A stretch of DNA of 38,533 nucleotides from the IMG/VR virus record IMGVR_UViG_2721755643_000003, positions 1 to 38,533 of that record; one strand, 5' to 3'. The stretch is from a virus (taxonomy: Duplodnaviria > Heunggongvirae > Uroviricota > Caudoviricetes). The number at the start of each line of letters is the position of its first letter. Positions within the stretch are counted from its first letter, which is position 1. The notes beneath the pieces were generated by a model. That model saw nothing but the letters and a program-made list of their open reading frames with translations. It did not search any database and was not told the origin of the DNA. Below are positions 152-38,533 of the stretch, piece after piece. The position numbers were made by a program, and so were the translations under genes.

Positions 152-227
<76 letters not shown>

Positions 228-281
228 GTTTAAAAGACATCGGCGTCAAGCGGATGTCTGGCTGAAAGGCCTGAAGAATTT

Positions 282-355
282 GGCGCGTTAACAAAGCGGT
301 TATGTAGCGGATTGCAAATCCGTCTAGTCCGGTTCGACTCCGGAACGCGCCTCCA
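282..355 (+). tRNA. cysT: tRNA-Cys (anticodon GCA)
   Basis: 74-nt sequence GGCGCGTTAACAAAGCGG...GCGCCTCCA with anticodon loop ATTGCAAAT; matches cysT from memory. Confidence 0.95.
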
Positions 356-367
356 CTTTCTTCCCGA

Positions 368-454
368 GCCCGGATGGTGGAATCGGTAGACACAAGGGAT
401 TTAAAATCCCTCGGCGTTCGCGCTGTGCGGGTTCAAGTCCCGCTCCGGGTACCA
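368..454 (+). tRNA. leuZ: tRNA-Leu (anticodon UAA), long variable arm
   Basis: 87-nt sequence GCCCGGATGGTGGAATCGGTAGACAC...CCGGGTACCA with anticodon loop TTTAAAAT; class II tRNA with extra arm; matches leuZ from memory. Confidence 0.95.
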
Positions 455-2548: not shown

Positions 2549-4237
2549 TTACTGCTTAATCACGGTACTGTACTTCGCTTTCAGGTTGCCTGCCATTGAT
2601 GCCACCGTGTCTATGCTGCCGCTGTTGGTGGGCTGTGACGACCCGTTGTTGGTATGAGTGTGTTGTGCGGTGAGCTGCGCCAGTTGCTGAACGGTGTCGC
2701 AAAGATCCAGCATGAGGTTAAGTGTGTTGATGGTATTGCTGCCAAACCAGACCTGCGGGGCGATGATCTGTTGCATCTGGCCAGCGACGGATTTTTTAAT
2801 CCGGCCAATCTTTTCTTCCAGCGTTTTCGCCACATTGTGGGTGGTGCTTTCTGTGCTGGTTTGCCACTGGTGAGTAACGTCGAGTTCAGCGCTGTCGGCG
2901 TGCTGTATCAGTTTCTTCGTGGCGGCTACGGCATAGTCACCGTCTGCGATGTGCTGTATGTGGCCGCTCATCAGCTTATGAGTGCCGAGCACCGTTATGG
3001 TGTTGTTGGCCTTTACGGTAATATTACGAGTGGTACTGGTGCGCGTTTCCGTTGTGTTCTGGATGATGCGGTCGGTGGATTTCTCACGAATAACCTGATC
3101 GGTTTCACGCTGCCATGTGCCATCTGTATGCACACGCTGGAATACCTCTGCGCGTTGCTGTTGTAGTTGTTCGCCGGGCTTTATTCCCGGCAGACTCTGG
3201 CCGCTGGCGTGAGTGCCGGTGATGATGGGTTTATCCGGCCTGCCGTCAACGTGGGCCAGTGTAACTATGGTTCCTGGGGGCGGGTACTGGAATATCCCGG
3301 ATTCATTGCCGGCCATTGGCACAGGAACGGGGACGGCGTTATATACCGGTGTGTTCTTATCGGGGGTGCCGTTCTCGTCGAGCAACTGCACATTGACGGC
3401 GTAGCGTGGGCGAAATTCATCATGCAAATCCCCCTGGGTTGTGTTTTCAGTTGGTGAGATCACGCGTCCCATGCGTGGAAGGTGGGTTTTGTTGCCTATC
3501 TCGGGGTAAAGGGTTTCGATCTGGCGTTGTACGGGCGACTGACGGCCATCACTCCAGCTAATGATCATGCTGTCGCCCTGTAGCTGTACCTGATTTATAC
3601 GGTGATCGTTCATGACCACGCCGGGGCGCATCATGGGAATCGTCTGTATTGTCCAGCCATTTGCTCCGTGATCACCTCTGGTGATATCGACCGGCAATCT
3701 GGCAGGGCGTTTTGCAAAACGGCAGTCAGCAAAGCTTCCGGCGTAGATGATGCCGTCAACCGACGGATACCAGACGTAATCCGGGATACTGAATATGCGG
3801 CCAAGCATGGCCATCAGCTGATAACCGTTGCCATTGTGGGTCAGATGAGGGACCGGAGTGGTGGTGTAGCCTGCCTTCGGGAGTTGTATGCGTAAACCTG
3901 TATTGCCTTCAATGTGTCCTGCGACCTGTTTCAGCGTCGGATGCTGCATGGAGATGTTGAGCGGGTATTGCAGAATAGCAGCAGCTTCGCGCACCATCAG
4001 CTTGTGCAGCCCTCTGCCTGTACAACTGTCACTTTCCACATATCCCGAAAACCACTTTACAGGCTGATCATTGTAACCGATGGACAGCTCTACGGGTTTG
4101 CCGCGTAGCGGGGGAGTATTGTCGGCGGCGTTAATGGTGATAAAGCCGGTTCCCGCGCCGTTGAGACGCAACATGATGTTTTCTTCCACGACAGGATAAC
4201 GCCTGCCGTTAATGCAGAGATCACGAATTGGTTTCAT
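2549..4237 (-). CDS. Baseplate hub / central spike protein (gpD- and gpV-like, VgrG-like)
   Basis: 562 aa; N-terminal CINGRRYPV...LNGAGTG resembles the P2 gpD TLNGRDIT region; central GIFQYPPPGTIVTLAHVDGRPDKPIITG resembles the gpV/gp5 OB-fold; C-terminal HxH (GHIQHI); last gene of the tail operon. Confidence 0.55.
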   Translation of the reverse strand: MKPIRDLCINGRRYPVVEENIMLRLNGAGTGFITINAADNTPPLRGKPVELSIGYNDQPVKWFSGYVESDSCTGRGLHKLMVREAAAILQYPLNISMQHPTLKQVAGHIEGNTGLRIQLPKAGYTTTPVPHLTHNGNGYQLMAMLGRIFSIPDYVWYPSVDGIIYAGSFADCRFAKRPARLPVDITRGDHGANGWTIQTIPMMRPGVVMNDHRINQVQLQGDSMIISWSDGRQSPVQRQIETLYPEIGNKTHLPRMGRVISPTENTTQGDLHDEFRPRYAVNVQLLDENGTPDKNTPVYNAVPVPVPMAGNESGIFQYPPPGTIVTLAHVDGRPDKPIITGTHASGQSLPGIKPGEQLQQQRAEVFQRVHTDGTWQRETDQVIREKSTDRIIQNTTETRTSTTRNITVKANNTITVLGTHKLMSGHIQHIADGDYAVAATKKLIQHADSAELDVTHQWQTSTESTTHNVAKTLEEKIGRIKKSVAGQMQQIIAPQVWFGSNTINTLNLMLDLCDTVQQLAQLTAQHTHTNNGSSQPTNSGSIDTVASMAGNLKAKYSTVIKQ

Positions 4238-4787
4238 TGCCTGCCGGGCCTATCCAGTTATTGAGTTTGTCTGACATTTTCCAGAACCAGCCATGCTCTT
4301 CGTTTTTTTCGCCTTTGCCACCTGATTTGACGGCCTGTGCGTGCTGTTCAGCACTCTGGCTGCCAGCCGGGCCGCGTCCTGTCGCCTTTTCGGCACTGCT
4401 GAGTTTTTCTTTCAGAGTGAAGTCAACTTTCCATGCCATCAGGCCTGTTTCAGGAGTTGCGCCCACGGCACCGGAAAAAATCCCTTGCTTCATATTGACC
4501 GCTTTGGCATCCATGTTGGCGATGCGGTAAACCTGTTGTGCACCGTTAGCGGCTCTGGCTTCAGCCAGACGAAATAAGCGTGTGAGTGCTTCCGGCTGGG
4601 TGAACGGAATCAGTCCGGAAATCTGCAGCTCCTTGGCTTTTACACCCTGTTCTGAAGTCGCTGTTGATGAGGATTTTCCGGAAGCGTCTTTGTCTTTGAT
4701 GGTCAGCTTCACGCTGACACTTAAGCGTTTTAGCGGGATTATCTGACCATTAAGGGCCAGCAGTGGCGTTGTCGTGTTCTGGCTCAT
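4221..4787 (-). CDS. Hypothetical phage tail-associated protein
   Basis: 188-aa ORF on the tail-operon strand between the fibre chaperone and hub/spike; Lys/Ala/Ser-rich; no family recognised; GC content similar to core genes. Confidence 0.35.
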   Translation of the reverse strand: MSQNTTTPLLALNGQIIPLKRLSVSVKLTIKDKDASGKSSSTATSEQGVKAKELQISGLIPFTQPEALTRLFRLAEARAANGAQQVYRIANMDAKAVNMKQGIFSGAVGATPETGLMAWKVDFTLKEKLSSAEKATGRGPAGSQSAEQHAQAVKSGGKGEKNEEHGWFWKMSDKLNNWIGPAGNETNS

Positions 4788-19224: not shown

Positions 19225-20337
19225 TTACAGCGGTTCAAACTGCGCGGGTTGTTCGCCGGGGGCTGCGCCCGGCGTCGGTGTGCGCTGGCTTTCAATGACC
19301 GAAAAACGCTGGCTCAGATTTTCGATTGCACTGGTAAGCGTTGTCAGTGTGGCGGCGTCGGCCTCATCATCTTTTTCCGTCTTCCGGGTACTGAAATTCT
19401 GCGCTGCGGCTGGCGCTGGCTGTTGTCCGCCATTACGGGCGGCGATACGTGCCTGGAGTTTTGCGGTTTCAGCATCCTGTGGCTGCACCGTAAAGGTGTT
19501 AAGTGCGGTCTGTAGCTCCGTCACGGCGGTGGTGTAGTTCTGGCGTGCCGTGTCGTCTTTCGGGTTGATGGCCAGTGTGTCAGTGGCAACGGAAAGCTTT
19601 TCACTCAGCTCCGCAACGTGATTAGCGTGAGCGCTGAAATCCCCGGTTACTGGCTGTGTGTCTGCTGTTGCGGATGCCGTGGGCTGCGCCGGTGCGGGTT
19701 GCTGTGCCTGTGGTTGCGTGTTCGCCTGCGCGTCAATTTTTGCCGTCAGAGTGACAATCTGGGCTAGCAACTGGTTCGCCTGTTCTTTAGTCATGGATTT
19801 ATCCTCATGATGGTTTGTTGGGGTGTCAGCGACCAGCGTCAGACGCCCAAGACTGAACATTTCAATATTTCCAGCGGCGGCATACTGCGGACGTGAGCCC
19901 TGTGTGTTGTTTTCCACTGATTTGATTTCCATGCGCTGGGTTCCCAGACTTGCCGGACTGTCGGTTGCTGCCAGCCCGTACAGATAGGTTTGCCCGGTGT
20001 TGGCATAGTTCTCCCAGAACTCGCACGAGGTAAAGAGCTTCTGGCCGCGATCGTTAAGGTTAACCAGCGCCTGGTTAGGCTCCAGCTTCGCCATAAGGCG
20101 CAGTCTTCCGGCGTCTTCTTTAGCCGCCAGCTCGGAAACAAGCCCCAGATTGGGGGTAAATTCTCGCTCCTGAAGACTGTATACGGGGTGATTAGGCCAG
20201 ATCATCGCTGTGTATCTGGCGGTGCTGTAGTTGTCAGCGGCCTGCTGGATCATTTCGCGGGTAATGGGGCGACCGTCGATGGCGTAGCCTTCGGTTGCTA
20301 TGCATATCCAGTCAGTGGTGTATTTCTGCTTTGCCAT
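19225..20337 (-). CDS. Capsid scaffold protein (P2 gpO-like)
   Basis: Track ORF 19225..20397; the start at 20337 (MAKQKYTT...) aligns with P2 gpO MAKKVSKF...; internal YANTGQTYLYGLAATDSPASLGTQ matches gpO FANTGKCYLVGLAVTDDPASLGTE; Gln/Ala-rich C-terminus. Confidence 0.8.
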   Translation of the reverse strand: MAKQKYTTDWICIATEGYAIDGRPITREMIQQAADNYSTARYTAMIWPNHPVYSLQEREFTPNLGLVSELAAKEDAGRLRLMAKLEPNQALVNLNDRGQKLFTSCEFWENYANTGQTYLYGLAATDSPASLGTQRMEIKSVENNTQGSRPQYAAAGNIEMFSLGRLTLVADTPTNHHEDKSMTKEQANQLLAQIVTLTAKIDAQANTQPQAQQPAPAQPTASATADTQPVTGDFSAHANHVAELSEKLSVATDTLAINPKDDTARQNYTTAVTELQTALNTFTVQPQDAETAKLQARIAARNGGQQPAPAAAQNFSTRKTEKDDEADAATLTTLTSAIENLSQRFSVIESQRTPTPGAAPGEQPAQFEPL

Positions 20338-20494
20338 TTCATTACCGCTTTTTGATGTATCTGGCGGTATTATTGCGGCTGTTTTCGCGGGTTTCATTCG
20401 TTCTGAATCCGGGCTTTTCGTATATGATTTTATGTGCGAAAAATGCCAAAATTTAACGATATTTCAGAGTGTTATTGCTCTTTATGATGGGCGA
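20338..20494. promoter_or_regulatory. Divergent late-promoter region between scaffold and terminase operons
   Basis: 157-bp AT-rich intergenic region between divergently transcribed O and P, where P2 has its Ogr-dependent late promoters; no TGT-N12-ACA box could be confirmed by eye. Confidence 0.4.
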
Positions 20495-22318
20495 ATGAAA
20501 TATACCGAAGAAGTCAGGGACGCTGCCCGCGCCCTGTATCTGAAATTCAGTACACCAAAAGAGATAGCGGCCACGCTGGGGCTTCCTGTGCGTACCGTTT
20601 ATAACTGGGCTGTCCGGGGGCAATGGAATGAAATGTTACCAGCTGAGTCGGTGGAAGTGGCTGTCGCCCGGCGAGTGGAACGACTGACCTGCAAGGATGG
20701 TAAAAGCGAGCTTGAGCTTGAAGAGCTGCGCTTCCTGATATCCCAGCACGTCAGGCTGATGGCGCAGAAGAACAAACATGCTGAACGGATGGAAGAGATC
20801 CGGGCGATGGTCAATACCGGCGTGGTGGTCAATGATGGCCGACAGGGTAGCAGTGAAGAAGGGAATGACGAAGGTGGTAAAAAAAGGAAGCGACTACGTA
20901 AAAATGATGTCGGCGGACTGACAAAAGAAATATTTGATGAAAAAGCGAATGGTCATCTGTTTGAATATCAGCAATATGTGCGTGAGCACGGCGACGAACT
21001 GTTCCGCTTCATTCTGAAAGGGCGACAGGAAGGATTTACCTACTATTTTGCATGGGAAGGGTTTGAAAAGGCCGTTCTCACGGGCAAGAATCAGATATTC
21101 TTTTCCGCCAGTAAACCCCAGGCGGAAGTTTTCCGTTTCTATATTCTCAGTATTGCGCAGCAATTCTTTGGTGTCGAGCTTAAAGGCAACCCGATTCGCC
21201 TCAGCAATGGTGCGATACTGCGTTTTCTGGCGACCAATCCCAATACGGCGCAGTCCTACAGTGGCGACCTGTACGGGGATGAGGTCTTCTGGATACCGAA
21301 ATTTGCCCGCCTGCATGAAGTGGCGTCAGCGATGGCGACGCATGACGAATTCCGTATTACCTACTTTTCAACCCCCAGCGCTAAAACGCACCAGGCTTAC
21401 AGGCTGTGGACAGGGGATGAATGGAAGGGCGACGATCCGAAACGTAAGGCGGCGGAGTTCCCGACCAGCAAGGAATTGCGTAAAGGTGGACGGGTCTGCC
21501 CTGACGGGATCTGGCGCTATGTCATCACTATGGAGGATGCGTGCGCTAAGGGACTCAGTGCCAGAGTTAACATTGAGAAGCTGCGTAACCGCTACAGCGC
21601 CACGGCGTTTGCCATGCTGTACATGTGTGAGTTCACTGACTCCCGCGACACAGTATTTAAATTCTCAGACCTTGAAAAATGTGAGGTTGAGTTCGGCATC
21701 TGGCAGGACTTCGACCCCTCCGCATTACGGCCTTTTGGTAATCGTGAGGTGTGGGGCGGTTTTGATCCGTCACGAACGGGTGATAACTCAACATTTGTTA
21801 TTGTGGCCCCGCCTGTTGAGTCTAAAGAAAAATTTCGCGTGCTGGCTGTCTACCAGTGGGTGGGGCTTAACTTCACCTGGCAGGTTAAGCAGATTGAAGA
21901 ATTAATGAAACGCTACCGGTTTACGCATATCGGGGTGGATATCACGGGTATTGGCCGGGGTGTTTATGATCAACTGGTACGCTCCGCACCGCGTGAGGTG
22001 ATGGGGATTAACTACAGTGTTGATAATAAAAATAAACTGGTGCTTAAGATGATTGACCTCATTGAGCGGCGACGTATCCAGTGGGTGAAAGATGCGGTTG
22101 ATGAGGTGACAAAAGAACGTGCCGATATCCCGCTGGCATTTATGGCCATCCGCCGTGTAATGACTGCCAGTCAGAACGCAATGACGTTCGCCGCCGAACG
22201 CAGCGAAACGACCGGTCACGCGGACGTATTTTTTGCCATATCGCACGCGGTCTGTAATGAACCGCTCGACTATGAATATGACCGCCCCTCGGTGTGGGCA
22301 TTCGGGAAGGCTGCATGA
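20495..22318 (+). CDS. Terminase large (ATPase) subunit, P2 gpP-like
   Basis: Track ORF 20300..22318 trimmed to MKYTEEV at 20495 (607 aa); divergent from the capsid operon and followed by portal with ATGA overlap, as in P2. Confidence 0.8.
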   Translation: MKYTEEVRDAARALYLKFSTPKEIAATLGLPVRTVYNWAVRGQWNEMLPAESVEVAVARRVERLTCKDGKSELELEELRFLISQHVRLMAQKNKHAERMEEIRAMVNTGVVVNDGRQGSSEEGNDEGGKKRKRLRKNDVGGLTKEIFDEKANGHLFEYQQYVREHGDELFRFILKGRQEGFTYYFAWEGFEKAVLTGKNQIFFSASKPQAEVFRFYILSIAQQFFGVELKGNPIRLSNGAILRFLATNPNTAQSYSGDLYGDEVFWIPKFARLHEVASAMATHDEFRITYFSTPSAKTHQAYRLWTGDEWKGDDPKRKAAEFPTSKELRKGGRVCPDGIWRYVITMEDACAKGLSARVNIEKLRNRYSATAFAMLYMCEFTDSRDTVFKFSDLEKCEVEFGIWQDFDPSALRPFGNREVWGGFDPSRTGDNSTFVIVAPPVESKEKFRVLAVYQWVGLNFTWQVKQIEELMKRYRFTHIGVDITGIGRGVYDQLVRSAPREVMGINYSVDNKNKLVLKMIDLIERRRIQWVKDAVDEVTKERADIPLAFMAIRRVMTASQNAMTFAAERSETTGHADVFFAISHAVCNEPLDYEYDRPSVWAFGKAA

Positions 22319-23370
22319 GTAAACGTAAAAGCGCACGCCTGCGTAAACGGGCACAGACAGAAAATTTTACTCCCGGACGCGGCAATATTATCACTTTCGG
22401 GGAGCCGGAACCGATACTGACTACCGGCACGGAATACATCAACGTCTGGTATAACGGTAGCTACAACTACTGGACACTACCAATAGACAGACTTGCGCTC
22501 GCGCAGTTGCCGAATCTTAACGCCCAGCATGGCGGCGTACTGTATGCACGCAAAAATATGGTGTGTGCCAGCTACCAGGGGGGTGGACTGACGACCGATC
22601 AGATGGAAATGGCTGTCTTTGACTACCTGCTGTTTGGTGATGTGGCCATTCTGAAGGTCCGTAACGGGTGGGGACGGGTGGTGGCGCTGGCACCATTACC
22701 GTCTTTGTATCTGCGTCGCAGCAAGCAACTTGATTTTATCGTGTTACAGGAGGGCGAGCCGCTGGTCTATTCGCCGTCTGATGTTGTGTTTTTACGTATG
22801 CATGATCCGCGACAGCAGATTTATGGACTGCCTGATTATATCGGTGGTATTCATTCAGCGTTACTGAACAGTGAGGCGACCATTTTCAGACGTCGCTACT
22901 ATCACAACGGTGCGCATATGGGGTTCATCATGTACGCGTCCGACCCGAATATGTCTGTTGAGGCTGAAGAAGCTATACGTAAAAAAATAGAGAGCGGTAA
23001 CGGGCTTGGGAATTTCCGTAACATGTTTATCAGTATCCCAAAAGGGCAACCGGACGGGATTAAAATTATTCCGGTTGGGGATATTCAGCAAAAAGATGAG
23101 TTTTCAAATGTGAAGAATATCAGCGCTCAGGATGTTCTTACGGCGCACCGCTTTCCGGCTGGTCTTGCCGGTATTATCCCGCAAAATGCGAGCGGACTTG
23201 GCGATCCCGATAAGGCAAGGACAACCTATGGACGGGATGAAGTGACACCTGTCTGCCGTAAATTCATGCAGGCTGTGAACAGCGATCCCGAAATCCCCCC
23301 GTCGTTACACCTTAATTTTACGCTGGAAGATGTGGAAAATGTGGTGTCTGCGCTGGCTGATGAAAAATAA
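22315..23370 (+). CDS. Portal protein (P2 gpQ-like)
   Basis: From MSKRKSARL; strong similarity to remembered P2 gpQ (LNSEATIFRRRYYHNGAHMGFIMY vs LNESATLFRRKYYENGAHAGYIMY; GNFRNMFISIPKGQPDGIKIIP vs GNFRNLFLYSPNGKKDGIQIMP). Confidence 0.9.
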   Translation: MSKRKSARLRKRAQTENFTPGRGNIITFGEPEPILTTGTEYINVWYNGSYNYWTLPIDRLALAQLPNLNAQHGGVLYARKNMVCASYQGGGLTTDQMEMAVFDYLLFGDVAILKVRNGWGRVVALAPLPSLYLRRSKQLDFIVLQEGEPLVYSPSDVVFLRMHDPRQQIYGLPDYIGGIHSALLNSEATIFRRRYYHNGAHMGFIMYASDPNMSVEAEEAIRKKIESGNGLGNFRNMFISIPKGQPDGIKIIPVGDIQQKDEFSNVKNISAQDVLTAHRFPAGLAGIIPQNASGLGDPDKARTTYGRDEVTPVCRKFMQAVNSDPEIPPSLHLNFTLEDVENVVSALADEK

Positions 23371-23420
23371 CCCGAAAAAGACTATATTACCCCTGCAACC
23401 GGTCAGATTGTGGGGGGGTT

Positions 23421-23696
23421 ATGGCGGGTGTGATGAAAATTGAATGTCCGGCGTGTCACTGCCGGGCGGCTATACGCAAAACTGCATGGCAGGATGACGC
23501 AAAAACGCTGGCGGTAGTTTATTGCACCTGCACTAATTCTGACTGCAATATGCGTTTTTCGCTCAATCTTTCCGATCTTCGCGTGATTTCACCCAGTGAC
23601 CTGCAGACTGATGGTGTCGTTAAAGCATTGCTCCAGCGCCTTAAACCAGACGAAAGGCAAATGGCACTGGATATTCTGCTCAGTGATGGCGCGTAA
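23421..23696 (+). CDS. Ogr/Delta-family zinc-finger late transcription activator
   Basis: 91 aa; CPAC...(24 aa)...CTCTNSDC is the C-x2-C...C-x4-C spacing of P2 Ogr (CPLC...CQNVNC); G-rich ribosome-binding site. Confidence 0.7.
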   Translation: MAGVMKIECPACHCRAAIRKTAWQDDAKTLAVVYCTCTNSDCNMRFSLNLSDLRVISPSDLQTDGVVKALLQRLKPDERQMALDILLSDGA

Positions 23697-23830
23697 GTGC
23701 CATTCTGTGGGGCGGTGGATCTTCCGCTTCCTCGCCCTGACAGACTCACCGCTATGCGGTTCGCTAATCAGGGGCTGCGGCGAGCGGTTTTGCACAATAT
23801 GATCCAGTACAGCAACAGAGAGATTTAGTT

Positions 23831-24349
23831 TTATTCGAAGCTGGCAAGAATCTGTTCTCGAACAGAAGATTTCATCGTTAACCCACGATCCAGGAAAAAT
23901 TGGAAATGCATTAAGGCTTGTTGTTTGTGGATAAATCTCCTGCGCACAGCCTCCTGGAGTAGCCCTCCGTGGCGGGCGGCTTTTACACCGCGTTCCGCAC
24001 ACGTTTTATAAACCGCATTATCCGCCGAAAGACATGTTGCATCATGTATTCTCGCGTTAACAACGCAGCTTATGTCCGCATACTTCAATGCTCTCCTGCG
24101 ATTTTTTATCTCAGCCATTTCAATAAAATGTTCAGGTTCGTAATCATTGGTGAAATTGTATGGAAGTTGCAGGCGTGTAAGCTGTTCCTGAACATCAAGA
24201 TTGTATTTAGCTTTTAGTTCCTCGCAGACATAGGGGTCAATCCACACACCACCCGGGTAAATTTGCCAGATAAGATCTAAGCATTTACCTTCGTAAAAAT
24301 CAGACAGTACATTCGTATCGATAACACATCTGGGGCATTCAAACGGCAT
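23831..24349 (-). CDS. PIN-like nuclease domain protein (DUF4411-like, candidate toxin/effector)
   Basis: Track ORF 23831..24382; probable start at 24349 (MPFECPRCVIDTNVL) with AGGAGG 9 nt upstream; PIN-type acidic positions in VIDTNVL, VCEEL and IHDATCLSADN; overlaps the upstream gene stop by 11 nt; AT-rich. Confidence 0.6.
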   Translation of the reverse strand: MPFECPRCVIDTNVLSDFYEGKCLDLIWQIYPGGVWIDPYVCEELKAKYNLDVQEQLTRLQLPYNFTNDYEPEHFIEMAEIKNRRRALKYADISCVVNARIHDATCLSADNAVYKTCAERGVKAARHGGLLQEAVRRRFIHKQQALMHFQFFLDRGLTMKSSVREQILASFE

Positions 24350-25484
24350 CCTCTCCGGCCTCCTGTTCGTCGTACCATTCATCCAGAAGATTGCTGAGAG
24401 CTTTTCTGTCTAATTCTAAAAGTTCAGATATGAAGGTTTCCGACGCGGAACCGGCTTCCCATGCTTTACGCGATAAGACGGTTAGGCGACCTTTATAATT
24501 TAGTGCTTCCCTTATGGGATTTGGCTCGTGTCTCTTCCAGCCTTTACGATTGGCGGTTGCCCATAGGTATCTAGTGTTTTGCTGATTAATTAAATTACAT
24601 TTACTAAGACGCTCAATGATGCAAGTGGCTGATACTCTGAAAATGCTTTTTAGTCTAAGGACGGTTTCCTCATACGCCCATCCACCACCTTGCATGACGA
24701 ATTGTTTTCGCAACGCGCTTTCTGGTACCAAAAAACAAGCAGCAAAGTGATTAGCAACTTTTTCTTCCGGTGAAATTGCTTTGCCATTAGTTTTATAGCT
24801 TTTAGCAGGGCCATCATACTCATCACGGTGGAAGATAAGATGAGCATATTCATGGCAAATACTGAAGATTTGACGTTCTATTGAAATGCTGTCGTGAACA
24901 TTTACATAAATCGCGGTACCGTATTTGTTCGAAAACGCAGAAAATCCGAATACCATCCCTTTATCGGTTTCCTCGCGATTGAACGGGATCACTCGAATAT
25001 CCGATGCTTCCAAAATGGCTACAATGTCACCAACGCAAGTAGCGTTTCCCATACCAAGACGGAAACGTTCTTCCATAGCCTTATCTTCGACTCTTCGCAA
25101 ATCTTCTGCTTTGGCGGTAAAAACAGGCATTGAGTTAGGAAGATCTTCTGGCAAATTAGCATCAGCAGCTTCCTCAATTGCATTGATATTTTTTAACTTT
25201 TCAATCAACTCATTGCGAAGTCTGGCATCCAACAAATCCGGACTATCTGCTCGCATTGCAAAACGAAACTCGCCATCATCTTGCTCATAAAAATACCCGA
25301 CAGGCTTATCGAAAATCTTGCAGAGCATGATGAGTTGGGTAACGCTTGGGACGCCTAGCGCCTGCTCAAACTTACTGTAGGTTTGACGAACAACACCGAT
25401 CGCATCTGCGACGGCGCTTGCACTCATTCCTGCGTCGTTTCTGGCCTGAACCAAGCGTTCTGCTATACGCTGTTGAATGTTCAT
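24339..25484 (-). CDS. Fused XRE-family HTH / ImmA-IrrE (M78) zinc metallopeptidase regulator
   Basis: 381 aa; N-terminal HTH (AERLVQARNDAGMSASAVADAIGVVRQTYSKFE); HExxH as HEYAH and downstream E...ANHFAACFLVPE, the ImmA/IrrE signature; GGTGA ribosome-binding site. Confidence 0.8.
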   Translation of the reverse strand: MNIQQRIAERLVQARNDAGMSASAVADAIGVVRQTYSKFEQALGVPSVTQLIMLCKIFDKPVGYFYEQDDGEFRFAMRADSPDLLDARLRNELIEKLKNINAIEEAADANLPEDLPNSMPVFTAKAEDLRRVEDKAMEERFRLGMGNATCVGDIVAILEASDIRVIPFNREETDKGMVFGFSAFSNKYGTAIYVNVHDSISIERQIFSICHEYAHLIFHRDEYDGPAKSYKTNGKAISPEEKVANHFAACFLVPESALRKQFVMQGGGWAYEETVLRLKSIFRVSATCIIERLSKCNLINQQNTRYLWATANRKGWKRHEPNPIREALNYKGRLTVLSRKAWEAGSASETFISELLELDRKALSNLLDEWYDEQEAGEDAV

Positions 25485-25600
25485 ACGTCACCTGAATTTA
25501 ACAATGGTGGCTCTTATGGGTTTAGATTGGTTAATTATTACTAACATTATGAATGGAGAGTTGCAAAAATCATAATTAAATTATGCAAATTTCATGGAGT
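25485..25600 (-). promoter_or_regulatory. Promoter/operator region of the HTH-peptidase/PIN operon
   Basis: AT-rich; on the - strand TTGCAA, 17 nt, TAGTAAT upstream of the GGTGA site; imperfect palindrome GTTAATTATTACTAAC near the -10 as a possible operator. Confidence 0.4.
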
Positions 25601-25868
25601 GTGATGTGGTGTGGGTTCACACTCTCTGCTGATTACATCCAGGGCGGTTTCCGCCCTGGCTCTGCTTACTCAGGAAATAACGCCCGGATATTTCCGGCCA
25701 TCTGACTGGTTATCTGTGCGGTTGGTACTGGCTGTGGCGTGGGCGTTCTGCCCTGTTTGCGCCCTGACCTATGCAATCCGCGCCGGATTCATATGGCACA
25801 TGTTTGAGGTAGCCTGAGTTTAACGGACACTCCTTCCTGAAATAGAATGGCATCAGAAGGAGCTAATA

Positions 25869-26171
25869 ATGAGCAGAAAAACCCAACGTTACTCTAAAGA
25901 GTTCAAAGCCGAAGCTGTCAGAACGGTTCTTGAAAATCAACTTTCGATCAGTGAAGGCGCTTCCCGATTATCTCTTCCTGAAGGCACTTTAGGACAATGG
26001 GTTACCGCCGCCAGAAAAGGGCTCGGTACTCCTGGTTCCCGCACGGTGGCTGAACTGGAATCTGAAATTCTGCAACTGCGTAAGGCGTTAAATGAAGCTC
26101 GCCTTGAGCGAGATATATTAAAAAAAGCAACAGCGTATTTTGCACAGGAGTCGCTGAAAAATACGCGTTAA
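25869..26171 (+). CDS. IS3-family transposase OrfA (HTH DNA-binding part)
   Basis: 100 aa ending ...LERDILKKATAYFAQESLKNTR; slippery A_AAA_AAA then G at about 26120-26127 near the 3' end. Confidence 0.85.
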   Translation: MSRKTQRYSKEFKAEAVRTVLENQLSISEGASRLSLPEGTLGQWVTAARKGLGTPGSRTVAELESEILQLRKALNEARLERDILKKATAYFAQESLKNTR

Positions 26172-26206
26172 TCGAACAATGGCGACAACAATTTCCCATT
26201 GAAGCG

Positions 26207-27025
26207 ATGTGTCAGGTATTTGGTGTATCCAGGAGCGGTTATTACAACTGGGTACAGCATGAACCCTCAGACAGAAAACAAAGTGATGAGCGGCTAAAAC
26301 TGGAGATTAAGGTGGCACATATCCGCACTCGCGAAACATATGGAACCCGGCGGCTCCAGACGGAGCTGGCAGAGAATGGCATCATCGTTGGTCGTGACCG
26401 ACTGGCACGTCTTCGTAAGGAGCTAAGGCTACGCTGTAAGCAGAAACGCAAGTTCAGAGCGACTACGAACTCGAACCACAATCTGCCAGTTGCGCCAAAT
26501 CTGCTGAACCAGACGTTCGCTCCTACAGCACCAAATCAGGTCTGGGTGGCGGACCTGACGTATGTTGCCACACAGGAGGGATGGTTGTACCTCGCTGGCA
26601 TCAAAGATGTTTATACGTGCGAAATTGTCGGCTACGCCATGGGAGAGCGCATGACAAAAGAGCTGACAGGTAAAGCCCTGTTTATGGCGCTCAGGAGCCA
26701 GCGCCCACCTGCCGGGCTAATCCACCACACCGATCGAGGTTCACAGTACTGCGCATACGATTACCGGGTCATACAGGAGCAGTTTGGTCTGAAAACATCA
26801 ATGTCGCGTAAAGGTAACTGTTACGACAACGCTCCGATGGAAAGCTTCTGGGGAACGCTGAAAAATGAGAGCCTGAGCCACTATCGTTTTAATAACCGGG
26901 ATGAAGCCATCTCAGTAATACGGGAATACATTGAGATTTTCTACAATCGTCAGCGTCGTCACTCTCGTCTGGGGAATATCTCCCCGGCAGCCTTCAGGGA
27001 AAAATATCATCAGATGGCTGCTTAA
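26207..27025 (+). CDS. IS3-family transposase OrfB (DDE catalytic part; expressed as OrfAB by -1 frameshift)
   Basis: 272 aa in the -1 frame relative to orfA; DDE context VWVADLTYV, HHTDRGSQY, ESFWGTLKNE; the frame is open back to the slippery site. Confidence 0.85.
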   Translation: MCQVFGVSRSGYYNWVQHEPSDRKQSDERLKLEIKVAHIRTRETYGTRRLQTELAENGIIVGRDRLARLRKELRLRCKQKRKFRATTNSNHNLPVAPNLLNQTFAPTAPNQVWVADLTYVATQEGWLYLAGIKDVYTCEIVGYAMGERMTKELTGKALFMALRSQRPPAGLIHHTDRGSQYCAYDYRVIQEQFGLKTSMSRKGNCYDNAPMESFWGTLKNESLSHYRFNNRDEAISVIREYIEIFYNRQRRHSRLGNISPAAFREKYHQMAA

Positions 27026-27065
27026 AAAAAGAACAAATGGTAGTGTCCGCTATTGCCAGTACACC

Positions 27066-27368
27066 TCAGTTGTGTCTTTTTTCTGCATGGTAATGAGCTT
27101 TGTTCTCGTTAAACGGTAACACCTCATTCAGCCCGGCACTTCTGAAATCAGCGTGTAATTGCTCCAGTACTGTTTCTTTATCAGCACCCGTTAATTCGAG
27201 ATAATCCCAGAGGCTGGCGCATAAACCACAGTTTCGCGAAAATATTCTGCCTGGATTTGCTCCGTTTTTCAGCCACAAATCATAAGTAATATAAAATCCG
27301 TGAAGTTGTTGCCTGATACTTTCTTTGATTTCCTGCGCTGGCACGGTGCCTGGTAATTGCTCTCTCAT
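27066..27368 (-). CDS. Hypothetical early-operon protein, C-terminus truncated by the IS insertion
   Basis: Track ORF 27066..27404; its stop codon is supplied by the last 3 nt of the IS; without the IS the frame would continue about 10 codons (..MCHMNPARIA) into the left flank. Confidence 0.4.
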   Translation of the reverse strand: MREQLPGTVPAQEIKESIRQQLHGFYITYDLWLKNGANPGRIFSRNCGLCASLWDYLELTGADKETVLEQLHADFRSAGLNEVLPFNENKAHYHAEKRHN

Positions 27369-27796
27369 TGTGAATCTCTCCTGTGTTGTGCCGGTCTGGC
27401 GCATGAATGGCGCTGCGGTAAAAAGACCCTTTGCGTCAGTGCGGCCTTGCGATTGACGGCAGTCAGCGTTCTGGCCAGCGCGACATTGTGTTTGCGGGTC
27501 TGCTCTTCGTGGTACTTCTGCATGATTTTCCCGGCCGGCGTGAGTGGTTCCGGCTCTTCCGGTGAACGGCGCGGACGAACGGCAACTATCCAGCTCTGAT
27601 ATTCACTGCCCGGTCGCCTGTTAAGTATGTCGGTGATGGTGGTTGTGGTGGTGCGATCGGGGCTGGCCACCGTGATTTCCAGTTCGTCCCCGGGCTGTGG
27701 TCTTGTGGCTACGCCTCTCAGTGTCATGGCTGGCGTGCGCTGGCGCATAACGGCGTCGAACTGCTGACGCTGCATGGTGCAGTGAAATCGCGTCAT
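27365..27796 (-). CDS. Hypothetical protein downstream of the replication gene
   Basis: 143-aa ORF overlapping the stop of gene A by 4 nt; no family recognised. Confidence 0.35.
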   Translation of the reverse strand: MTRFHCTMQRQQFDAVMRQRTPAMTLRGVATRPQPGDELEITVASPDRTTTTTITDILNRRPGSEYQSWIVAVRPRRSPEEPEPLTPAGKIMQKYHEEQTRKHNVALARTLTAVNRKAALTQRVFLPQRHSCARPAQHRRDSQ

Positions 27797-30285
27797 GATC
27801 TTACCTCCGCTGACGACTCCTGTGTGATGACGATGCGGCGGGTTGTGGCGCTCCAGTACGCGATACGCCCGTCGCCCGGGCGAACGCGGGCACCGTTACT
27901 CACGGAAATAATGGCTGCGTCAGGCAGCTGCACACCCAGCGCGTCGAGTTCGCGGGTGATTTGTGCGATGGTCGTGGTGTCGACAGGCACGACAACCTCC
28001 ACCCTGACAGGGGTGTCTGATGCTGGTCTGGTGTTATTTTGTCCGGTATCCGTGGCGGGCGGCTGATTTTTAAGCTGTCTGATGAGCTGTTTCCGCTCGT
28101 AATGGCTCAATCCCTGCAACCATTGTGTCAGGCCATTTTCCGGAAGTGTCAGACGTTTCTCCTGCTGCCTGTTTTCTGTGCCGGTTCCGGCTGTTTTTTC
28201 GTCGCCGGGACAGTTATTGCCACGAGTCCAAGGGGCGGCAGGGCCGCCCTGAAGGTCAAAACCATTTTCGTGGGTGCTGTCTTCCGCTTCCGGTTTACGT
28301 CTTACCAGCTTCCAGTTATCCGGGTGCGTGCACACACGGGAGGATTCCCCGATGAGTGGCGACCAGATCCCGTAAATCTGTACGCTCTGTTCGCCGTAAT
28401 CGTTCAGCTCATCTGCGAGGTCGTAGGCGGTGCGAATCAGGTAGTCTTTGCGTGGAACAAGTACGCCGCCCTGTTTCTCTATGTAGGTGGCAAAACATCC
28501 GGCATCAGCGGCAGCAAGAACCGCATCCATTGCGTCATCCTTCAGCCGTTGCGGACCTTCCGGGTTGCGTGCCATCTGGCTGGCAAGGCGGCGCAGTTCA
28601 CGCCATACCTGACGGGAGGGGATGCCAAAGAACTGGAACTGGCGGACCCGGTGAAGGCGCGCCCAGCCGATGGCGCGTTCCACGCTTTCTGCCATCGTCT
28701 TTCCTGATTCGTCGTCGATGCGCGGTTTGCCTGTTTTCGGGTCAATGCCATCCACGGAGTGGCTGTCCAGGTTCTTTCCGATGTAGGTGGCGATGTAGCT
28801 GGTCGGCGTACCTTTCGAACCGTCGACGTACTCCGCCTTAAAGCGCGGAGTTATGTCATCGCCCAGCTCGTGGCGGTCTTCACGAATGGCAATATCGCGG
28901 GCGATGGTCACGATGCTGTCGATTTCTTCAGGATGTGCAAAGACCATCATATGCCAGTGCACGGTGCCGTCATGGTGAGGCTCCACCGTGCGGATGCCAT
29001 ACCAGCGCAGGCCCTTGCGGTCCAGTCTGTTACGAACGGCTTTAAAAAAAGTGTTAACCAGATAATCACTGGAATCGCGCATGGTAGCCCCGTTCCATTT
29101 GGGGTTCGGATGACCGTTCTCCGTTGTTGCGTGGTATTTTGACGGGCAGGTGACAGTCAGAAACACCGCTTTGTCGCCACGGGATTCGGCTATAAGTTCC
29201 GCCCCTTTCATGGTGGCCATCATTTCTGCCTTACGGTGAACCGGGTTACTTACTCCCGCGTAATACACTGTCTCGAGATCAATCGTGAACCCGTCTTCGT
29301 TTTCCAGCATGAAACTTTTCAGGAAATCGCGTGTTTTCTCGCGCTGTGCGCGAAACTCGCTCAACGCGTCCTGGCTCAGATAGGGCGATGTTTTTCTGGA
29401 AACCAGACAGGCGGCGCGGAGTTGTTCTTCCCGCCACTCGCAACGTAACAGCCACAGTTTGCGTTTCCACCATTCCGCACAGGTCAGGCGAAGGATTGCG
29501 CCCGGCAGCAGCTCCGTGTCCGGTTCGTTCTTCCGGTCTTTGTCTGTTGTCAGTGCGTCATAATGTGGAGGCATGGTGTGCAGATGTAGCGCCATGCGTG
29601 CCAGCATCTGATATGCCTTCAGCGCCACCTCCATGGTCAGCTCGCCATCTCTGGCGCCAAAGCCATCGCAGAGTGTCTCGAAGGTGCTGCTGAACATTGC
29701 CGCCGTCATGGTGGCCAGCGTCTGTATCTGGTGTTTGTTGAGCTGCGGCAGGTACAGCAAATCGTCCAGGCGTTCACGTCCGGCAAGGGAGCAATAACCC
29801 GGTGTCAGCCAGCGTCCGTCAGTGCGTTTCAGACGTTTGAATATTTTGCGCAGGGTTCTGCGCGCGTAGCCCTCTGCTGGTCGACTCTTTTTGCCTTTCT
29901 GGCGGTCAGATTCCTGCTTCTTACGCAAAAAAGAGAGGCGGCGGCTCAGTGGTTCACGCAGATAAACAGGTAGTGCCTTTAATGTGGCAAAGGCACGGGC
30001 CACCGGGTCTTGCTTTATTTCCTGGCGTTTACTGATGATGTTTTTTATCAGTCTTTCGCGTTGCCCGGCTTCCTCAAGGGATGCCATGAGTTTTTTACCT
30101 GTATCGGATTGTGCGAAAAAGGCTTCCTCCTTCGCTTCCTGTTCTTCCCGGGCCTTTTTGTCCGCCTCAAAGTAGTAACGGATGACGTGTTGCAGTCCGG
30201 TTTTTGGCAACCGGCTGAAGTTCGCGAAGTCATCCGGATTAATAGCTGGCTGCGGTTCATTCCAGCTCCATGCAAACTCACTCAT
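27793..30285 (-). CDS. Replication initiation endonuclease (P2 gpA-like rolling-circle initiator)
   Basis: About 830 aa from MSEFAWSW (ATGA overlap with the upstream gene); HUH motif in GTVHWHMMVFAH and paired catalytic tyrosines in PTSYIATYIGKN. Confidence 0.85.
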   Translation of the reverse strand: MSEFAWSWNEPQPAINPDDFANFSRLPKTGLQHVIRYYFEADKKAREEQEAKEEAFFAQSDTGKKLMASLEEAGQRERLIKNIISKRQEIKQDPVARAFATLKALPVYLREPLSRRLSFLRKKQESDRQKGKKSRPAEGYARRTLRKIFKRLKRTDGRWLTPGYCSLAGRERLDDLLYLPQLNKHQIQTLATMTAAMFSSTFETLCDGFGARDGELTMEVALKAYQMLARMALHLHTMPPHYDALTTDKDRKNEPDTELLPGAILRLTCAEWWKRKLWLLRCEWREEQLRAACLVSRKTSPYLSQDALSEFRAQREKTRDFLKSFMLENEDGFTIDLETVYYAGVSNPVHRKAEMMATMKGAELIAESRGDKAVFLTVTCPSKYHATTENGHPNPKWNGATMRDSSDYLVNTFFKAVRNRLDRKGLRWYGIRTVEPHHDGTVHWHMMVFAHPEEIDSIVTIARDIAIREDRHELGDDITPRFKAEYVDGSKGTPTSYIATYIGKNLDSHSVDGIDPKTGKPRIDDESGKTMAESVERAIGWARLHRVRQFQFFGIPSRQVWRELRRLASQMARNPEGPQRLKDDAMDAVLAAADAGCFATYIEKQGGVLVPRKDYLIRTAYDLADELNDYGEQSVQIYGIWSPLIGESSRVCTHPDNWKLVRRKPEAEDSTHENGFDLQGGPAAPWTRGNNCPGDEKTAGTGTENRQQEKRLTLPENGLTQWLQGLSHYERKQLIRQLKNQPPATDTGQNNTRPASDTPVRVEVVVPVDTTTIAQITRELDALGVQLPDAAIISVSNGARVRPGDGRIAYWSATTRRIVITQESSAEVRS

Positions 30286-30671
30286 GGCTGGTATCCCGTT
30301 ACGCGTTGCCACTCCTGCGAGAAGAGGGCAGAAAGGCGGTTAAACTCAGTGGTGTATTCACTCAGGGAAGCGCAGCCGCCAGCAGTGCGATGCGTCAGCA
30401 TCGCTGCAAATAAGGAGACCGGGGAGTTGTAATACGCCAGCAGGGAGTTGCCGTGTGGCGTCAGGGTGTACAGGGCCAGACCGTGTGGTGTGAAGTCCAC
30501 GCGGTAGCAGTCGTCCACGATGAAATAAAGGGGGCCTGCGTTCTCCGGTTTTGTGGTGCGTGCCTGGCTGGCACGGGCACGGAGATAGAAATCAAGCATT
30601 GCCTGAAGTTTTGGAGCCAGACGGGTGTCCTGTGTGCGCACCCATTTTACGAAGTCATGACGGTCAATCAT
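30282..30671 (-). CDS. Hypothetical early protein
   Basis: 129-aa ORF translationally coupled to gene A; no family recognised. Confidence 0.35.
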   Translation of the reverse strand: MIDRHDFVKWVRTQDTRLAPKLQAMLDFYLRARASQARTTKPENAGPLYFIVDDCYRVDFTPHGLALYTLTPHGNSLLAYYNSPVSLFAAMLTHRTAGGCASLSEYTTEFNRLSALFSQEWQRVTGYQP

Positions 30672-31849: not shown

Positions 31850-32151
31850 GATTTGGCCTCCTTACGGCTTTCTGGTGTGGAGATGATCAGATTCAGTTTC
31901 AGGGCGGTGGCGTGTTCCTCTTTTGCCCCCGGCGAGTCCTCCCAGCCATCCAGCAGGTAAATCACATCGGCACAGTGCAGCATGGCGCTCCCGATAAGCA
32001 TGTAGTCCCTGTATCTCAGCCCGTCAGGGAGTGTTGCGGGGTTGAGTACGGTATGACCCTGCATCCTCAGGCGGGTCGCCGTCATGGTGAAGGCGGTGCG
32101 GTTGAAATCAGGCTTCCCCGTCATGGGGCCAGCGATATAGATAACGGCCAT
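31840..32151 (-). CDS. DUF4406-like protein (nucleoside deoxyribosyltransferase-like fold, putative)
   Basis: 103 aa beginning MAVIYIAGPMTG with ...DVIYLLDGWEDSPGA, matching my recollection of the DUF4406 pattern; directly downstream of the Dam gene. Confidence 0.5.
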   Translation of the reverse strand: MAVIYIAGPMTGKPDFNRTAFTMTATRLRMQGHTVLNPATLPDGLRYRDYMLIGSAMLHCADVIYLLDGWEDSPGAKEEHATALKLNLIISTPESRKEAKSCF

Positions 32152-33110
32152 TACATGATCTCCGTGGTGGGGTGTGGAGCGGGAATGTGAGACAGCCAGC
32201 CCGCATTGACATCCCGGATCCGGACCTCACGGGCTGGCGGATAAACACCAATCACCTCTTTTGCCTGCTGGCGTGCACTGCTGCTGGCAGCCACAGCGCG
32301 GCGAACGCTCAGGGTGTGCAGCTCAAACGAGGAATAGATCTGCCGGGTTTCGGAGGTGTCACTGTTGGAGACCACCGGGTGGATACCGTAACGCTGCCAG
32401 GCGTTCATCATGAGCGCCGCAAGGTCACGGTGGTCTTTGCGGGTAAATGCCCGGCCGTTGTAGTGAGTGAACGCCTCTTTACCGTCCGGTGGCAGGTAGG
32501 GCGGATCGCAGTAAATGGCGATATCGCCGTGCACCGAAGAAAAACGGCGGATCTCAGCCGGCATTGTGAAGGCTGTACGGAAATCCGCGTGAATAAAGCG
32601 GGTCCGGGTCTCGTTGGCTTTATCAGCAAACAGGCGCATTTCCTGGCAGGGGAAATAAGGCATGCGGTGTTTGCCGAATGGCACATTGAATTCGCCTTTT
32701 TGGTTGGTGCGGTACAGGCCGTTAAAGCAATGGCGGTTCAGGTACAGAAACAGCGCTGCCCATTCCAGGGATTCGCCGCGTAATCTGTCGGTGGCCAGCG
32801 CGATGGTGTTAAATGCCCCGCGATGGCGTTTGTAGGCTTCCGGTGTGCCGCCATCCTTAAAGAGCGACCATGCACGATCCATTAATTCCGTGGTGTTGGT
32901 CGTCAGTTGCTGGTAGAAATTAATCAGCGCGGGGTTGCTGTCACACAATACGTAATAGTCATAATCCGTGTTCATGAAGACCGAGCCGCCGCCCACGAAG
33001 GGTTCGATCAGGCAGGCGGCTTTGGGTAAATATTCGCGCAGCTGCGGCATGATACTGAATTTGCCGCCCGCCCATTTGAGCGGTGAGCGCTGGTTCAGAA
33101 TACCTTTCAT
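32151..33110 (-). CDS. DNA adenine methyltransferase (Dam-like N6-adenine MTase)
   Basis: 319 aa; N-terminal PLKWAGGK and EPFVGGGSVF (SAM-binding motif I) plus catalytic DPPY (IYCDPPYLP). Confidence 0.85.
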   Translation of the reverse strand: MKGILNQRSPLKWAGGKFSIMPQLREYLPKAACLIEPFVGGGSVFMNTDYDYYVLCDSNPALINFYQQLTTNTTELMDRAWSLFKDGGTPEAYKRHRGAFNTIALATDRLRGESLEWAALFLYLNRHCFNGLYRTNQKGEFNVPFGKHRMPYFPCQEMRLFADKANETRTRFIHADFRTAFTMPAEIRRFSSVHGDIAIYCDPPYLPPDGKEAFTHYNGRAFTRKDHRDLAALMMNAWQRYGIHPVVSNSDTSETRQIYSSFELHTLSVRRAVAASSSARQQAKEVIGVYPPAREVRIRDVNAGWLSHIPAPHPTTEIM

Positions 33111-37531: not shown

Positions 37532-38533
37532 ATGTCTGTTCGTAAATTACCTACTGGCAAATGGCTCTGTGAATGCTACCCCTACGGAGCAGCAGGAAAA
37601 CGCATTCGTAAACAGTTTGTTACTAAGGGTGAGGCGCTCTCTTATGAGCGCCGTTTAATGAACAGTAATTTGGGGAGCGAGTTTCAGGATGGTTCTGGCC
37701 CCCGCCTTTCCGAGTTGGTTGCTCGCTGGTTTGAGATGTACGGTAAGACACTGTCTTCCGGTGAAGAGCGAAGGGCTAAACTTGAGGCGATTTGCTCCCG
37801 GTTGGGGGATCCGCTTGCTTCTCAATTTGATAAAAACATGTTTGCCACCTACAGGGAACGGCGATTATCAGGTGAATGGAATCCAAAGGGGAAGAGGAAG
37901 CTTAGCGAAGCAACCGTTAATCGTGAGCAGTCATATCTACATGCTGTTTTTGCCGAACTGAAGCGCCTTGGGGAGTGGTCTGGTGAAAACCCCTTAACTG
38001 GCATTCGCAAATTTCGTGAGGAAGAAAAGGAACTGGCGTTTCTGTATGTAGATGAGATTGAACGCCTTCTGATTGCGTGTGATGAGTCACGGAATAAAGA
38101 TTTGGGGGTTGTTGTCCGTATTGGGCTTGCGACTGGTGCTCGGTGGAGTGAAGCAGAAGGATTAAAGCAATCTCAAGTACTGCCCGGTCGAATCACATTT
38201 GTTAAAACTAAAGGAAAGAAGAACCGCACTGTACCGATTTCACCTCAATTGCAGGCTATGCTTCCTAAAAAACGAGGAGCGCTATTTTCACCATGTTATG
38301 AGGCTTTTGACGCTGCAATTAAGAGAGCGAAGATCGAGCTTCCTGATGGGCAATTAACTCATGTGCTACGTCACACGTTTGCCAGTCATTTTATGATGCG
38401 GGGCGGAAATATTCTTGTGTTGCAAAAAATACTGGGGCATAGCGATATAAAAATGACTATGCGTTATGCGCATTTTGCTCCAGGTCATTTAGAGGCTGCT
38501 GTTGAATTGAACCCTTTTGACAATAGAGGGTAA
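37532..38533 (+). CDS. Tyrosine integrase (P2-family)
   Basis: 333 aa; ATGARWSEA, RITFVKTKGKKNRTVPIS and LRHTFASHFMMRGGNILVLQKILGHSDIKMTMRYAHFAPGHL align with remembered P2 Int motifs (catalytic R...H-x-x-R...Y); its stop is the last codon of the window. Confidence 0.9.
   Translation: MSVRKLPTGKWLCECYPYGAAGKRIRKQFVTKGEALSYERRLMNSNLGSEFQDGSGPRLSELVARWFEMYGKTLSSGEERRAKLEAICSRLGDPLASQFDKNMFATYRERRLSGEWNPKGKRKLSEATVNREQSYLHAVFAELKRLGEWSGENPLTGIRKFREEEKELAFLYVDEIERLLIACDESRNKDLGVVVRIGLATGARWSEAEGLKQSQVLPGRITFVKTKGKKNRTVPISPQLQAMLPKKRGALFSPCYEAFDAAIKRAKIELPDGQLTHVLRHTFASHFMMRGGNILVLQKILGHSDIKMTMRYAHFAPGHLEAAVELNPFDNRG

Follow-up and report, generated by a model that had tools for sequence, protein, structure and literature searches.

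In this study, we found that an insertion sequence in the cargo hotspot of a P2-like prophage is a complete copy of IS600. The window, which is the whole 38,533-nucleotide stretch of viral DNA that was analysed, very probably records a single recent, and probably near-neutral, transposition of this element into the 3' end of an accessory gene in the interval from gene A to the portal gene. The site before insertion is preserved in copies of this prophage that lack the IS, and these bear out the finding.

A complete IS600 copy

The element occupies 25805..27068 (plus strand, 1264 bp) and matched copies in E. coli genomes annotated as IS600 with 99.8% identity over positions 1-1264. The initial annotation had described it as a complete 1264-bp insertion of the IS3 family, IS600-like, with these same limits. 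The coordinates were exact, and the element is IS600 itself. In a nucleotide comparison, at least 80% of the 1264-bp element was covered at one place in each of 1748 records, and the RefSeq copies among the matches listed were annotated 'IS3-like element IS600 family transposase'; the window copy shares with RefSeq copies full-length near-identity, both ends and the 1264-bp length. Three independent IS600 copies with unrelated flanks (L008-L010) differed from the window copy at two adjacent nucleotides, and their similarity to it stopped at the identical two terminal bases. Since the similarity ends at the same terminal bases, the copy is complete and not truncated. A search elsewhere in the window found no further IS600 copies or fragments.

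At the left junction the sequence reads ...CACAT-GTT and then TGAGGTAGCC, and at the right junction GTACACCTCA and then GTT-GTGTC.... In a longer reading, ...GGCACAT-GTT is followed by TGAGGTAGCCTGAG on the left, and CAGTACACCTCA is followed by GTT-GTGTCTTTTTT... on the right. The terminal inverted repeats are IRL, TGAGGTAGCCTGAGTTTAACGGACACT (25805..25831, plus strand), and IRR, AGTGTCCGCTATTGCCAGTACACCTCA (27042..27068, plus strand). They are 27 nt long and imperfect, with 19/27 positions complementary (70%), and they form the longest inverted repeat of the region. The TGAGGT termini and the GGACACT block, from which imperfect inverted repeats had been proposed earlier, both fall within this 27-nt pair. 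The ends fit the 5'-TG...CA-3' rule of the IS3 family (TGAGGT...ACCTCA).

IS600 was first described in Shigella sonnei and is common in Shigella, EIEC and STEC. The element is active in E. coli, as seen from lacZ insertions and from IEE-mediated excision in O121:H19 (PMC9397093). Copies of IS600 also recombine on pINV plasmids, and the coordinates of one such copy, 72898-74161, correspond to 1264 bp (PMC7283534).

Transposase genes and frameshift signal

The orfA gene (25869..26171, plus strand) encodes a 100-aa protein with an HTH_Tnp_1 DNA-binding domain (Pfam PF01527, E = 1.5e-20) and a leucine-zipper-like C-terminus; sources of this exact protein call it 'IS600 ORF1-like'. The orfB gene (26207..27025, plus strand), in the -1 frame relative to orfA, encodes 272 aa from its first ATG and has Pfam matches to HTH_21 (E = 1.5e-13) and to the rve DDE catalytic core (E = 2.9e-26; also rve_2 and rve_3). 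A -1 frameshift signal is predicted at 26120..26166 (plus strand), where the slippery run A-AAA-AAA (26120-26126) is followed by a hairpin (26129-26169). The core arms of this hairpin, at 26133-26144 and 26155-26166, are 12 nt long and 92% complementary, with a fold of -13.1 kcal/mol (z = -2.15). Translation with a -1 slip on A-AAA-AAA gave an open 385-aa OrfAB fusion that scored 413 bits against NCBIfam NF033516, 'IS3 family transposase' (cut-off 160), so that the earlier impression of an intact orfA/orfB pair with a slippery site was borne out. The fusion carries the motifs ADLTY, HHTDRG and PMESFW. No solved structure was related to OrfAB by sequence at E <= 0.001. The copy at the same site in E. 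coli RMDEC332 (L001; IS 99.8% identical) is marked 'programmed frameshift' by PGAP.

The window OrfAB is the same as that of L008-L010 (same slip; PGAP WP_085948186.1) except for S288T. This rare variant (ACC at 26729-26731) lies beside the second catalytic Asp and was otherwise seen on large plasmids of a few strains; the substitution is a conservative one. With its ORFs and ends intact, the copy is apparently transposition-competent. Elements of the IS3 family transpose by copy-out/paste-in via a circular intermediate. A promoter-like sequence that would serve the transposase, TTAACG-17-TAGAAT (25820..25848), lies partly within the IRL.

The prophage and its cargo hotspot

The window represents a P2-like E. 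coli/Shigella prophage, with a terminase gene (20300..22318), a portal gene (22294..23370; Pfam Phage_portal), an Ogr-like gene (23421..23696), replication gene A (27793..30312; Pfam Phage_GPA, E = 4e-129) and a Dam methylase gene (32151..33110). A tRNA Gly-Cys-Leu cluster lies at the left end, and the ORF at the right end (37532..38533) is a putative integrase gene, as read from its C-terminal sequence. Both the IS and an RmrA-like/PIN gene pair were found between gene A and the portal gene Q, that is, in the A-Q hotspot. IS600 is on the plus strand, opposite in orientation to the phage early genes. It had been placed between the early operon and an HTH-peptidase/PIN pair, and it does lie between the distal genes of that operon and the module. 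No Rfam family was found in 23000..29000 at E <= 0.1. The cargo at this position differs among relatives, one of which carries parM/parR (L002) while the module is absent from another (L003). Rousset et al. (PMC9122126) regard the A-to-Q interval of P2-like phages as a hotspot for anti-phage cargo. Transposable elements are described as infrequent in the genomes of phages (PMC13586616), which makes the presence of an intact IS within the hotspot somewhat unusual, but it is not new in kind.

The first gene of the module (24339..25484, minus strand) encodes a 381-aa HTH and M78 peptidase protein that is RmrA-like, of the RosmerTA antitoxin family. It matched 16 PADLOC RmrA models (best E = 3.2e-35) as well as Pfam HTH_3 and Peptidase_M78, and its score of 86 bits against the NCBIfam 'spr1629 family repressor/antitoxin' falls short of the 335-bit cut-off. 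Its start codon is 320 bp from the IS, which lies upstream. The second gene (23831..24382, minus strand) encodes a putative toxin with a PIN domain of the DUF3368 type (Pfam PIN, E = 4e-5), and the PIN gene in relatives has a precomputed PF11848 match. PADLOC gave no RmrT model match for this partner. The pair may be regarded as a candidate defence module of the toxin-antitoxin type. In about 28 other E. coli genomes, the order is gpA, ParM, ParR, RmrA-like, PIN. There, the module together with the 274 bp corresponding to window positions 25485..25758 is 96-98% identical to the window and stands behind parM/parR.

The interrupted gene

The gene hit by the element is at 27066..27368 (minus strand) and now encodes 100 aa when read from the PGAP start; with the upstream ATG at 27404, the product has 112 aa. 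The gene falls into the phage families phrog_6418/phrog_2510, to which no function is assigned. The IS-free allele has 110 aa and ends in RHN followed by MCHMNPARIA, while the window allele ends in RHN. A loss of about 10 C-terminal codons had been proposed; comparison of the IS-free proteins P0026 and P0030 (...RHNMCHMNPARIA) with the window allele P0024 (...RHN) puts the loss at exactly 10 codons, from 110 aa to 100 aa. The last three bases of the IRR, TCA, give TGA as reverse complement, which is the new stop of the minus-strand gene. Through its terminus, the insertion has exchanged the final 10 codons of the 110-aa gene for a stop codon.

The displaced 3' end of the gene was found on the other side of the element. 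Nine of the lost codons (CHMNPARIA) and the TAG stop lie at 25772..25801 (minus strand), and this displaced end matches P0026 and P0030 exactly. The tenth lost codon, Met (CAT on the plus strand), is at 25801-25803 and has two bases in common with the left GTT. The 110-aa and 122-aa alleles P0026, P0028, P0030 and P0033 (Shigella flexneri, S. boydii) end in ...AEKRHNMCHMNPARIA, and they share the restored-ORF cluster with P0024, the 100-aa allele of the window. In lambdoid prophages, the homologues of the interrupted gene have 158 aa. The 115-aa cluster representative P0001, which reads into the IS, was rejected as a genuine C-terminus. It comes from the K3392 assembly, which has many indels relative to the window, and its odd C-terminus is therefore best read as a frameshift artefact.

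The empty site and the target duplication

Two copies of GTT flank the element, at 25802..25804 and at 27069..27071. For a 3-bp repeat alone, the chance expectation is 1 in 64. The claim of a GTT target duplication was therefore compared with IS-free relatives, and it held: all five IS-free loci of the same prophage (L011-L015) have a single GTT at the site, which identifies the repeat as a target duplication. Across the empty site, all five read ...GGCACATGTTGTGTC... or, in an alternative extent, ...CATATGGCACATGTTGTGTCTTTTTT.... In each of them, the alignment splits into two pieces, one ending at window position 27069 and the other at 25804, with an overlap of exactly 3 nt.

The flanks agree closely. 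Over 12.3 kb of flanks (6300 + 6036 bp), the two closest IS-free loci (L011 and L013) shared 99.93-100% identity with the window. L013 matched 6300/6300 bases in one flank and 6035/6036 in the other, and L011 was 99.98% and 99.93% identical in the two flanks. The insertion site was also gapless in an independent 555-bp ENA contig (L006) and in homologues from two lambdoid prophages, L004 and L005, which were 82.6% and 82.3% identical across the junction over 321 and 322 bp. Contigs encoding P0026 show the IS-free order gpA, 143-aa gene, 110-aa gene, HTH-peptidase, PIN, ogr, portal.

The empty site was reached by a protein route, from the restored ORF to its 90% cluster, then to the 110-aa allele and to the contigs that encode it. 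The reconstructed empty site was found in no complete E. coli genome searched. The exact 28-mer across it was absent from genome_contigs and the JGI metagenome contigs, and the right flank had no match in the phage collection; these three collections lack within-species variants. The alignments identify the event as a simple transposition in which 3 bp of target were duplicated.

Distribution and age of the insertion

The same insertion was found in three complete E. coli genomes, RMDEC332, RMDEC364 and VL46; RMDEC332 (human stool, Thailand) shares 99.97% identity with the window across 10.6 kb. The exact truncated protein P0024 is encoded on 52 contigs. A further 81 contigs encode P0025 and P0027, partial copies of the truncated protein cut off by the ends of contigs, which suggest the IS in many more draft genomes. 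The 110/122-aa IS-free alleles were on 25 contigs among those listed, with 16 counted for P0026. Near-identity of the flanks with the IS-free relatives, together with an IS that departs from the common copy by no more than 2 nt, marks the insertion as recent. In the related strain K3392, a 527-bp deletion takes out 89 bp of flank together with the left end of the IS.

The truncated gene and the orfB variant have consecutive accessions (AKH22518.1 and AKH22519.1), in a range that we take to be that of an enteroinvasive O96:H19 strain. The O96:H19 enteroinvasive clone has IS600-flanked rearrangements on its pINV plasmid (PMC7283534). We infer that the insertion was fixed by descent in a lineage with many IS600 copies.

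Possible effect of the insertion on the module

The initial annotation had suggested that the IS probably uncouples the module from early-operon read-through. In the IS-free relatives, the module is preceded by a 287-bp untranslated spacer with a strong hairpin. In the window, this is a perfect 9-bp GC-rich hairpin at 25637..25661 (minus strand; fold -24.2 kcal/mol, z = -5.1), just past the stop of a parR remnant and upstream of the module. The hairpin is not a canonical intrinsic terminator because a U-tract is absent. A consensus scan of the minus strand at 25485-25640 gave no convincing sigma-70 promoter; the best site had 9/12 positions and a poor -35 hexamer. Since the scans gave no good sigma-70 site and the hairpin is without a U-tract, the module's own promoter is one that we infer. 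A prophage defence module must be expressed while the early promoter is repressed, and P2 cargo genes, old and tin among them, do not need that promoter for their expression in the lysogen. The module's own 274-bp upstream region, the pre-existing spacer hairpin and the P2 analogy together suggest that it would be independent of early-operon read-through. Its own upstream region most likely drives its expression, and the effect of the IS on it is accordingly expected to be small; the insertion is probably neutral or nearly so. A genuine insulating effect, of modest size, is less likely. Any transcription that reads from the early operon into the module should be lowered further by the 1.26 kb of untranslated antisense sequence.

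The strongest competing view, which we consider unlikely, is that the IS insulates the RmrA/PIN module by polarity or termination from lytic co-transcription with gene A and the two small genes, so that the dosage of the module would change on induction. The gene order in the IS-free relatives is compatible with such co-transcription, as A, orf143 and orf110 are packed or overlapping on the same strand as the module and no canonical terminator stands between the early genes and the module. Three minus-strand terminator-like sites were also found within the IS, but such sites are not above shuffle expectation (5 against 2.2 +/- 1.4 for the whole region). Against insulation also stand the conserved 274-bp upstream region, which accompanies the module in unrelated contexts, the strong hairpin and the 287-bp untranslated spacer, which are older than the IS, and the expression of P2 cargo such as old and tin in the lysogen without the early promoter.

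It is very unlikely that the IS drives its neighbours through an outward or hybrid promoter, either switching the module on or producing antisense RNA to orf143 and gene A by read-out of the transposase. The promoter-like site for the transposase in the IRL does point antisense toward the early genes, and no plus-strand terminator-like site was found from the orfB stop to the flank; IS3-family transposase promoters, however, are known to be weak. Toward the module, a relaxed scan (at least 8/12 positions) gave no minus-strand site within 25805-25900. In the IRR, a -35-like TTGCCA stands without a -10 partner at a spacing of 16-18 nt in the flank. A promoter reaching from the IS ends toward the module was thus rejected as a candidate, as the scans gave none.

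We also give little credence to a non-neutral role of the IS, in which the module, severed from transcription in the lytic cycle, would have become a host-controlled, lysogen-only defence, or antisense read-out of the transposase into orf143 and gene A would dampen prophage replication, as a domestication step in an IS600-rich enteroinvasive lineage. If this were true, the 52 + 81 contigs with the truncated gene against 25 IS-free contigs could reflect selection and not the sampling of one clone.

An older recombination scar beside the element

A C-terminal remnant of a ParR-like partition gene, about 32 codons long, lies at 25666..25764 (minus strand), and its translation is identical to the C-terminus of the strain 165 protein. 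A PGAP pseudogene in RMDEC332 covers part of it (window 25666..25743). The remnant is 41 bp from the IS and is also present in the IS-free loci L011-L015. The similarity of the approximately 28 genomes to the window runs from the module up to 25758 and then stops, while the tail of the 110-aa gene is similar to its lambdoid homologues down to about 25749. The two similarity blocks join at a short microhomology, CA(A/G)ACAGGGCA. Since the IS-free relatives share the scar, it is older than the IS and was not made by it. Intense recombination at such loci has been described as leaving small intergenic pseudogene remnants behind (PMC13586616), an account that the parR scar fits.

The parR pseudogene called by PGAP beside the IS had raised an IS-mediated deletion as a candidate, which was rejected as the remnant is already present in the IS-free relatives. 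More generally, a junction made by IS-mediated deletion or by recombination between two IS600 copies, with a coincidental GTT, has a negligible probability: the locus is mosaic, with the parR remnant 41 bp away, and K3392 has its deletion at the left end of the IS, but the five IS-free relatives equal the window minus the IS and one GTT. The region had also been called a recent rearrangement site, and it does combine a recombination mosaic older than the IS with a secondary deletion at the IS in one strain.

Implications and comparison with known systems

The preferred explanation remains that IS600 jumped into a small accessory gene, at its 3' end, in the cargo hotspot of a P2-like prophage. 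As the element is host-derived mobile DNA and not phage cargo, its 1264 bp should be masked when the module is analysed, and the 100-aa ORF beside it should be taken as a truncated allele. The prophage occurs both with and without the IS, at up to 100% identity in the flanks, which makes the IS a clean lineage marker. The same pair of versions would be a natural control for the dependence of hotspot cargo on early-operon read-through in P2-like phages.

The element is already known, the locus is known to be variable, and the insertion is ordinary. The window copy shares with IS600 the 1264-bp length, the termini and the orfA/orfB organisation with a -1 frameshift. It differs from the common IS600 by TCT to ACC, giving S288T in OrfAB, and its insertion site is specific to this prophage lineage. 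In the module, the architecture of the RosmerTA antitoxin RmrA, an XRE-type HTH with an M78/ImmA-type zinc peptidase, is present in the window protein, and a small overlapping gene follows it as in two-gene toxin-antitoxin operons. The partner differs, being a PIN/DUF3368 protein that matched no RmrT model and had only weak PADLOC matches (PDC-S70, E = 5e-4). The parR scar resembles the small intergenic pseudogene remnants of the A-Q hotspot (PMC13586616), and the location that holds the window IS and the RmrA/PIN module is the same as that of the old/tin cargo locus of P2.

Interrupted small gene and its flank

The gene interrupted by IS600 (window 25805..27068, plus strand) lies on the minus strand and is 110 aa long in its IS-free allele. 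The TAG stop of this allele is at window 25772..25774 (minus strand). In the ENA contig L006, TGG (Trp) was found in place of this stop, and Trp also occupies this position in the 143/144-aa alleles and in the 158-aa lambdoid homologues. Because Trp replaces the stop in all of these sequences, their comparison indicates that the small gene was shortened by a nonsense change already before the arrival of the IS.

Next to the small gene, the C-terminal ~32 codons of a ParR-like partition gene remain at 25666..25764 (minus strand), and a short microhomology around window 25749-25758 marks the junction of this remnant with the tail of the 110-aa gene. In relatives, an intact parM/parR pair occupies the position of the remnant, upstream of the same RmrA/PIN module, and in P0031 and P0034, proteins of 143 aa from some relatives, the small gene is joined in frame to the ParR tail. 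Immediately after the stop of the parR remnant, we found a perfect 9-bp GC-rich hairpin at window 25637..25661 (CCAGGGCGG-AAA-CCGCCCTGG on the minus strand), which folds at -24 kcal/mol (z = -5.1) and is not followed by a U-tract.

Variation of the IS600 copy and its surroundings

At window 26729..26731 (plus strand), the IS600 copy of the window has ACC (Thr), whereas the common copy has TCT (Ser). This codon leads to S288T in the fused transposase OrfAB, adjoining the second catalytic Asp. The same-site IS600 copy in the chromosome of E. coli RMDEC332 (L001) has the common codon, not ACC. Among the matches listed, the exact ACC variant was found on plasmid-sized records (155-297 kb), and the strains carrying it were RMDEC332, RMDEC364, VL46, VL40, VL7S7, and FDAARGOS_943/944. 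Over 10.6 kb, the window and L001 differed at three positions, all of them inside the IS. These results suggest either that one IS copy was altered by gene conversion from another or that repeats were mixed up when the reads were assembled.

In the related strain E. coli K3392 (L007, CP091384.1), a 527-bp deletion around locus 5128-5131, corresponding to window 25716..26242, has taken out 438 bp at the left end of the IS, orfA among them, together with 89 bp of the flank beside it. This is a secondary rearrangement at the IS, a reading that deserves caution because the K3392 assembly contains numerous small indels.

In a sister prophage, that of E. coli FDAARGOS_943 (L003), the small gene occurs in an 82-aa form (locus 3993..4241) and is directly followed by ogr, and the RmrA/PIN module is absent. 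This arrangement is an example of cargo turnover at the hotspot between replication gene A and the portal gene.

At the left edge of the window is a tRNA Gly(GCC)-Cys(GCA)-Leu(TAA) cluster (window 152..454). The other end coincides exactly with the stop codon of a putative tyrosine integrase gene (window 37532..38533), called by eye from C-terminal sequence only.

Comparison of the RmrA/PIN module with RosmerTA

In the module at window 23831..25484 (minus strand), the HTH-peptidase matched models for RmrA, from the RosmerTA defence/TA family (E = 3e-35), and its PIN/DUF3368 partner gave no match to any RmrT model. The module was found in ~30 complete E. coli genomes at 96-100% identity. Judged by these matches, it may be a RosmerTA variant with a PIN toxin.
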